Below, piece by piece: positions 28,758-29,037 of a DNA stretch of 29,037 nucleotides (positions are counted from its first letter, which is position 1; every line of letters starts with the position of its first letter). Position numbers and translations under genes: made by a program. The notes under the pieces are model-generated. The model saw only the letters and a list, made by a program, of their open reading frames with translations. It was not told where the DNA came from and made no database searches. Source of the DNA: a virus; the UHGV virus genome UHGV-0149439; one strand, given 5' to 3'.

Positions 28758-29037
28758 GCGATAAAAATACATTACGCGTCTGGACCTTCTTCCGGCAGGG
28801 GATTCGTATCCAGGGGGCGCATGAATTTACGCCGCCGTCTCTGGCTGTTGTTAAAACAGATCTGCGTACCGGCGCCCAGGACGCTCCCACTCCGGTGGAT
28901 GACGGTATGGAGGCGCTGACCTGCCAGGTCAAATTCTATGGCATCGATGCTGACCTGCCAGGTCAAATTCTATGGCATCGATGCTGACATGCTTGCCAGC
29001 TTCGGTTTTGTCAGTGGCAGCCGTTCCCGGTTTACGG
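28754..29037 (+). pseudogene. Tail tube protein candidate, frameshifted by a 34-bp tandem duplication (premature stop at 28985-28987; original frame continues to the window edge)
   Basis: Start overlaps the sheath stop; removing one repeat copy restores an open frame reading ...YGIDADMLASFGFVSGSRSRFT. Confidence 0.5.
28921..28988 (+). repeat. Perfect tandem duplication, 2 x 34 bp (ctgccaggtcaaattctatggcatcgatgctgac)
   Basis: Copies at 28921-28954 and 28955-28988; GCTGAC microhomology at 28915-28920 and at the end of each copy. Confidence 0.9.

Follow-up and report, generated by a model that had tools for sequence, protein, structure and literature searches.

What does a perfect tandem repeat at the very end of a viral contig represent, an error of assembly or a mutation that has inactivated the gene in which it lies? 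The question is raised by the virus genome UHGV-0149439, a stretch of 29,037 nucleotides that was analyzed as a whole and is referred to here as the window. The window ends 49 nt past a 34-nt tandem duplication in the gene for the tail tube of a temperate phage. Our main reading, to which we give a probability of roughly 80%, is that this is a tail-defective Citrobacter koseri prophage in decay whose tube gene was put out of frame by a recent microhomology-mediated tandem duplication (MTD), and that the allele has reached fixation, or come close to it, in one infant.

Read directly from the window, positions 28915-28988 have the form GCTGAC-U-GCTGAC-U-GCTGAC, where U is the 28-nt sequence CTGCCAGGTCAAATTCTATGGCATCGAT. 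On the plus strand, the first GCTGAC (28915..28920) is followed by one 34-nt unit, that is, 28 nt plus GCTGAC, at 28921..28954 and by a second unit at 28955..28988; the wild-type allele of a related prophage (L012, described below) reads GCTGAC-28 nt-GCTGAC. The second unit is an insertion relative to every homologue and corresponds to a 34-column gap in all non-duplicated alleles, and the alignment is equally compatible with either copy being the newer one. The 40-mer at 28915 is identical to the 40-mer at 28949, and Tandem Repeats Finder reported the repeat at 28915-28992 with a period of 34, 2.3 copies, and a score of 149. This is the sole exact near-tandem repeat of at least 14 nt, at offsets of up to 200, in the whole window, for which the expected number of identical near-tandem 40-mers by chance is ~3e-18. 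The junction sequence of the duplicated allele is TATGGCATCGATGCTGACCTGCCAGGTCAAATTC, and the 42-mer specific to the single-copy allele (CGCTGAC...GCTGACA) is CGCTGACCTGCCAGGTCAAATTCTATGGCATCGATGCTGACA. It should be mentioned that the last 89 nt of the window (28949-29037) are exactly the longest suffix common to the duplicated and single-copy alleles. The window end may be a k=89 graph vertex at which the two alleles rejoin, which might suggest a source sample mixed for the two alleles, or its position may be coincidental.

The duplication lies in the gene that follows the tail sheath gene. The sheath gene (27288..28757, plus strand; PF04984/PF17482) is intact, encodes 489 aa, and overlaps the tube start by 4 nt. 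The wild-type tube protein of L012 (168 aa) matched PF04985 with 68.4 bits (cutoff 22.4) over model positions 2-159 of 165, and its residues 6-163 matched the R2 pyocin tube (3J9Q/5W5E, E 1.3e-14; 6PYT, E 1.5e-14). In the loci L010 to L018, the sheath gene is followed by those for the tube, tail assembly chaperone, tape measure, gpU, gpX, and gpD, and further downstream by gpW, gpJ, gpI, and the fiber genes. Sequence matches to the Pfam profile and to tubes of solved structure identify the gene as one for a phage tail tube protein FII (PF04985) of the P2/R-pyocin type. It shares with the tubes of P2 (FII) and R2 pyocin (PA0623; 3J9Q, 5W5E, 6PYT) both the family and the canonical place between sheath and tail assembly chaperone, but the window allele differs from them in being split into ORFs of 77 and 118 aa. 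The form expected of a member of the family is one uninterrupted ORF of ~168 aa. Most of the homologues that we retrieved have this form, shorter entries being mainly partial or otherwise disrupted genes, and the window allele stops after 77 codons.

Because 34 equals 3n+1, the tube gene is shifted by +1 after codon 66. The truncated ORF (28754..28987, plus strand) consists of 66 native residues (MSDKNTLRVW...QVKFYGIDAD) followed by 11 out-of-frame residues (LPGQILWHRC...), and it ends at a premature TGA (28985..28987, plus strand), which is the third GCTGAC read out of frame. The native frame is open from an ATG at 28938 to the window edge (28938..29037, plus strand), with the translation MASMLTCQVKFYGIDADMLASFGFVSGSRSRFT. 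On full-length contigs, this downstream ORF encodes 118 aa, namely MASM and then native residues 55-168. A preliminary description of the window had claimed a perfect 34-bp tandem duplication, GCTGAC microhomology at its borders, a frameshift to a TGA at 28985, and an original frame open to the window edge. The first claim was confirmed by the sequence, Tandem Repeats Finder, and the identical 40-mers, the second by the three occurrences of GCTGAC at 28915-28988, and the others by the stop after 77 codons and by the frame open from ATG 28938. As judged from these reading frames, loss of tube function is the most likely outcome. Without a polymerizable tube protein, no contractile tail would be built and the prophage would make no infectious particles, while it would still have its integrase, repressor, lysis, and head genes. 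An AlphaFold2 model of the tube, built with 36 homologues, had a mean pLDDT of 48, which is too low to place the break in the fold.

The two ORFs might nevertheless make a working tube, either through co-assembly of the 77-aa and 118-aa fragments after a restart at ATG 28938 or through a +1 ribosomal frameshift that gives an insertion of 11-12 residues. Jointly, they hold every native residue, overlapping at the duplicated residues 55-66, and each still scores as PF04985: the 77-aa fragment with 24.6 bits at model positions 2-66 only, and the 118-aa ORF with 43 bits at model positions 52-159. Furthermore, ATG 28938 is in the native frame and lies 47 nt ahead of the stop of the first ORF. However, its Shine-Dalgarno duplex is weak (-3.2 kcal/mol vs -9.3 kcal/mol at the native tube start), no slippery or +1 shift motif was recognized by eye in the sequence, and the single ORF of ~168 aa prevails among the retrieved homologues. 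To our knowledge, no tube protein has been reported to function when split. A functional split tube is thus very unlikely in our judgment, and loss of function remains the preferred reading. Programmed ribosomal frameshifting as a property of the gene was rejected as well, since the gene is one in-frame ORF in close homologues and in near-identical prophages and no slippery motif was seen by eye.

The position of the site, 49 nt from the window end, and the origin of the carrier genome from short-read metagenomes would both be expected if the duplication were a contig-end artefact of assembly or sequencing; an assembly artefact had been allowed by the preliminary description. We found the exact 77-aa product in 46 contigs, listed in 49 blocks of the collection, and the sources assign the protein products to C. 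koseri. In many assemblies, the duplication lies 6-10 kb from the contig ends at a coverage of ~367-590x. The carriers include the SPAdes-style contigs ERZ1745143 NODE_119 (17,628 nt, coverage 555), ERZ1745147 NODE_174 (17,680 nt; also OCJI01000174.1 in a metagenome collection), and ERZ835702 NODE_50 (75.9 kb), the IDBA-UD scaffold OLMM17-1_SAMN05301464 scaffold_62, and the 4.75-Mb genome CP017665.1. The duplication is internal in every one of these. Around the site, the carrier contigs match the window at 100% identity, and they are free of Ns. The identical allele is therefore found inside many assemblies from at least two assembler families and many libraries.

The way in which one assembly breaks also bears on this point. 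The Logan k=31 contig of SRR3726349 stops at window-equivalent position 28944, which equals 28915+30-1. This is the exact loop point of a repeated 40-mer in a k=31 graph, which indicates that the junction is present in the reads of SRR3726349. Moreover, junction k-mers at k > 40 exceed the 40-nt repeat, so that reads are their sole possible source. The duplication is real. The suggestion of an assembly artefact is refuted by the same allele lying far from contig ends in the products of different assemblers, and we regard the chance of an artefact as next to nil. Among IMG/VR viral contigs, there were 0 exact matches to the duplication junction or to the wild-type-specific 42-mer, and among GTDB representative genomes there were 0 exact matches to a 51-mer common to both alleles. 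At the exact-match level, the phage is therefore absent from IMG/VR viral contigs and GTDB representatives.

Which allele came first was addressed by comparison with intact homologous prophages, a check that the preliminary description had proposed and that found exactly one copy of the unit both in homologues and in near-identical C. koseri prophages. The prophages L012 (GCA_016501985.1), L013, L016, and L018 encode the same 489-aa sheath as the window and differ from it by 1-3 SNPs in 4.7 kb. They have a single unit with GCTGAC on both sides and an intact tube of 168 aa. This intact protein was present in 246 contigs, which bear the names C. koseri and Citrobacter. Citrobacter phage Chris1 (ON041214) and a prophage of E. 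coli SC476 also have exactly one copy of the unit, with ACTGAC and ACGGAT where C. koseri has the GCTGAC pair. Chris1 and related temperate Enterobacteriaceae myoviruses share with the window ~90% identity of sheath/tube DNA, the same late-gene order, and a 168-aa tube, whereas Chris1 differs in being without the GCTGAC microhomology pair. The comparison marks the single-copy allele with an intact tube as the ancestral state.

One copy between two GCTGAC sequences in near-identical prophages points to a recent MTD. The insertion is an exact tandem copy bordered by a short direct repeat that existed beforehand, the arrangement by which an MTD is recognized. In the wild-type tube gene, the two 6-bp GCTGAC repeats are 34 nt apart. 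The nascent strand may have slipped between them in replication, after which 34 nt would have been copied twice. From this arrangement, we infer replication slippage, that is, an MTD, as the mechanism. Folding of the DNA at the wild-type site gave no unusual hairpin (z = -0.14), and thus there is no argument for a structural hotspot. The classical duplication frameshifts of lacI and T4 rII are of the same kind, arising by slippage between short direct repeats. MTDs at microhomology pairs, together with their high rate of reversion, have been described (Dan et al., 2021, PNAS, PMC8639346); in S. pombe they form at ~1e-6 and revert at ~1e-4, roughly 100 times the forward rate, and they have also been reported in E. 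coli (PMC8639346). As in known MTDs, the copy in the tube gene is perfect and head-to-tail, and its ends fall on a GC-rich pair of 6-bp direct repeats that was there beforehand; the gene is thrown out of frame, and exact collapse of the repeat would give the wild type back. Known MTDs are usually subclonal, whereas the present one is fixed or dominant in a natural population and sits in a structural gene of the prophage on which lysogeny exerts no selection. This is an ordinary slippage-type mutation of a well-known kind, and only the instance is new.

The carrier is the Infant-1 C. koseri from a premature infant (Olm et al., 2017; PMC5378178; CP017665.1). For CP017665.1, IDBA-UD gave 27 short-read scaffolds, which were then joined with the help of a reference to close the genome, and Table S9 of the same report gives variants across 21 samples of Infant 1 (PMC5378178). 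Across 20.5 kb of the early region, the window is identical to CP017665.1 except at two paralog-mixed sites. None of the carrier contigs examined came from a demonstrably different strain. Most simply, they are re-assemblies of one infant's sample series and represent one lineage, and the best explanation of their common allele is that the C. koseri population of this one premature infant is wholly, or almost wholly, of the duplicated type.

CP017665.1 holds the late (head and tail) module of ~17.8 kb twice, in two prophages that have different early regions, fibers, and flanks. The left part of the module occupies 18068..29037 (plus strand) of the window, which represents the 'Ivy-type' copy; collapsed-repeat contigs start at this left edge. 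In the deposited genome, the first copy (L010, CP017665.1 3395446-3416915) is of the window type with Ivy upstream, and the second (L011, CP017665.1 556239-577708) is inverted, with DUF6694 upstream and different fiber genes. Both carry the duplication as deposited. Their alignment spans 17.8 kb and contains 25 mismatches, every one close to an edge, and the copies are identical from window-equivalent 18781 to 34912; because the copies are identical over these 16.1 kb, short reads cannot phase them. The collapsed-repeat contigs (17,628 and 17,680 nt) have their ends precisely where the paralogs differ, and at the edge paralog sites different assemblies choose different alleles. Position 3412377 of CP017665.1 (L010 16932) is ~48% T/C in 21/21 samples at single-copy depth, and the deposit has T in both copies (Table S9, PMC5378178). 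This ratio indicates that two copies exist, one of them L016-like at this position, and that the deposit hides paralog differences.

These features leave room for another reading, in which the duplication is in one module copy or in part of the population and the other prophage supplies an intact tube in trans, making tailed particles possible; the assemblies would then have collapsed the ~17.8 kb repeat and shown a single allele. It is favored by the unphasable tract between 18781 and 34912, by the T/C site hidden in the deposit (Table S9, PMC5378178), by the assemblies that differ in allele at known paralog sites, and by the end of the window 49 nt past the duplication with 89 nt that are the maximal suffix shared by the two alleles. 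Across L010 1494-15939, a stretch of 14.4 kb that includes the duplication, no paralog variant was found in any assembly. Assemblers of the IDBA-UD and SPAdes type are not known to merge 34-nt length bubbles, yet all contigs of the carrier strain that were examined run through the duplicated allele and none is single-copy. Taken together, the unmerged bubble, the uniformly duplicated contigs, and the lack of a paralog variant over 14.4 kb suggest that both module copies probably carry the duplication. In the part of Table S9 that was covered, no variant lies at 34070xx, 34071xx, or 56605x-56606x, which, with indels not called in the table, is at most weak evidence in the same direction. An intact second copy thus appears unlikely. 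If both copies are mutant, gene conversion between the prophages would be the simplest route from one slippage event. A more specific scenario, in which one slippage was followed by gene conversion to the second prophage within the identical tract of at least 14 kb, so that two tails are silenced in a high-frequency revertible off-state, seems distinctly improbable.

The state of the rest of the element was examined next to the tube lesion. The window represents the prophage of a temperate myovirus whose early genes are lambdoid, and its nearest named phage is Citrobacter phage Chris1. It encodes an integrase (1657-2832), an S24 cI-like repressor (4877-5569), a replication protein, Dam and Dcm-like methylases, an antirepressor, DUF968, Q, a holin, and a GH19 endolysin. 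The late genes are, in order, those for the terminase (GpA), the portal, a ClpP-capsid fusion, head completion, a PF04717 (Phage_base_V) protein, the sheath, and the tube. A second lesion was found in the tail-fiber assembly/chaperone gene (Caudo_TAP; L010 19612-20148, window-equivalent ~36.9-37.4 kb), where GAA is changed to TAA (E27*). This is the sole difference in 3 kb between the window-type prophage of CP017665.1 and the non-duplicated L012, in which the gene is intact (178 aa). In the early region, the comparison of the window with CP017665.1 revealed no further lesion. A candidate third lesion in the repressor (144 aa in CP017665.1 vs 230 aa) was dismissed as a difference of annotation only, as the DNA is identical to the window.

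With the tube frameshift and the nonsense mutation in the fiber chaperone gene, a tail-defective, decaying prophage is the best reading of these sequences. The preliminary description had offered a tail-defective prophage or a tailocin-like remnant; the former agrees with both lesions, and the latter is unsupported, as head genes are present. A tailocin was rejected on the grounds that the tail genes are directly preceded by those for the terminase, portal, and ClpP-capsid fusion and that a tailocin needs the tube, which is broken here. Unlike R2 pyocin, the element has head genes and is a full phage. It resembles cryptic prophages with point lesions in that an otherwise complete element has small inactivating lesions in late genes and wild-type alleles exist in sister strains. 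It differs from them in being at a very early stage, 1-3 SNPs from intact relatives, and in having the lesion in a module of which the genome holds two copies, where trans-complementation or gene conversion between the prophages is possible.

It has to be considered whether the duplication is a reversible off-state, a form of phase variation by MTD in which precise collapse at ~1e-6 to 1e-4 per generation would keep a minority of cells releasing infectious phage. The repeat is a perfect two-copy MTD whose collapse would give exactly the wild-type sequence of L012 and L013, and the reversion rate of ~1e-4 in S. pombe, ~100 times the forward rate, and the occurrence of MTDs in E. coli (PMC8639346) fit this idea. 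In the assemblies, which are the source of all copy numbers given here, the states seen were one (other strains) and two (carrier strain). Among the contigs seen, there was no heterogeneity of copy number, no allele with more than two copies, and no recurrence in other lineages, all carriers being the same strain. Reversibility is generic to any tandem duplication and is not a sign of a selected switch, and the co-occurring nonsense mutation in the fiber chaperone gene favors decay over regulation. We therefore hold a phase-variable switch to be quite doubtful, and decay of a tail-defective prophage is retained as the reading of the locus.

The results serve chiefly as a worked example. A suspicious duplication near a contig end is a genuine lineage-specific mutation, and this could be demonstrated from public assemblies alone. 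A prophage whose gene content scores as 'intact' probably cannot make tails, which is relevant to predicting inducible phages in infant-gut Citrobacter. Caution is needed with CP017665.1, because the ~17.8 kb late module of its two prophages was not independently assembled and claims on either copy need long reads. If both copies do carry the duplication, they would be a small natural case of concerted evolution of co-resident prophages, of moderate interest and to specialists in phage evolution only; if they do not, the second prophage can provide the tube in trans.

Several further observations were made on this prophage and on the tube family. Between the lysis genes and the terminase gene lie two likely morons, encoding a TonB C-terminal domain protein (16740-17075) and Ivy (inhibitor of vertebrate lysozyme; 17205-17627). 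Ivy was found only in the window prophage type and could matter to a gut/skin coloniser. The replication-protein gene (6816-7673) contains, at 7125-7188, 4.3 copies of a 15-bp unit, TCTGACGCGTCAAAA, and these repeats look like iterons of a lambdoid origin within an O-like gene. Positions 1-800 of the window, on the DinI side by the integrase end, differ from the otherwise near-identical GCA_016501985.1 prophage L021 by 24 SNPs and a 6-nt indel, and the next 17 kb by 4 SNPs only; position ~800 thus marks a sharp recombination or attachment-site boundary. Just beyond the tail-fiber end, at L010 20466-21470, there is a large gene for a cloacin/pyocin-S-type bacteriocin (774 aa), next to a small gene. 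Two other tube proteins are disrupted very near the position of the window break. P0090, from a Logan contig with a 96% identical tube, is frameshifted directly after residue 68 (…YGIDTDM, then PASV…), and P0088, a Klebsiella aerogenes tube, is fused to a transposase HTH after approximately residue 78, which suggests an IS insertion. The proximity of these two disruptions to the break site could be coincidence or sequencing error.
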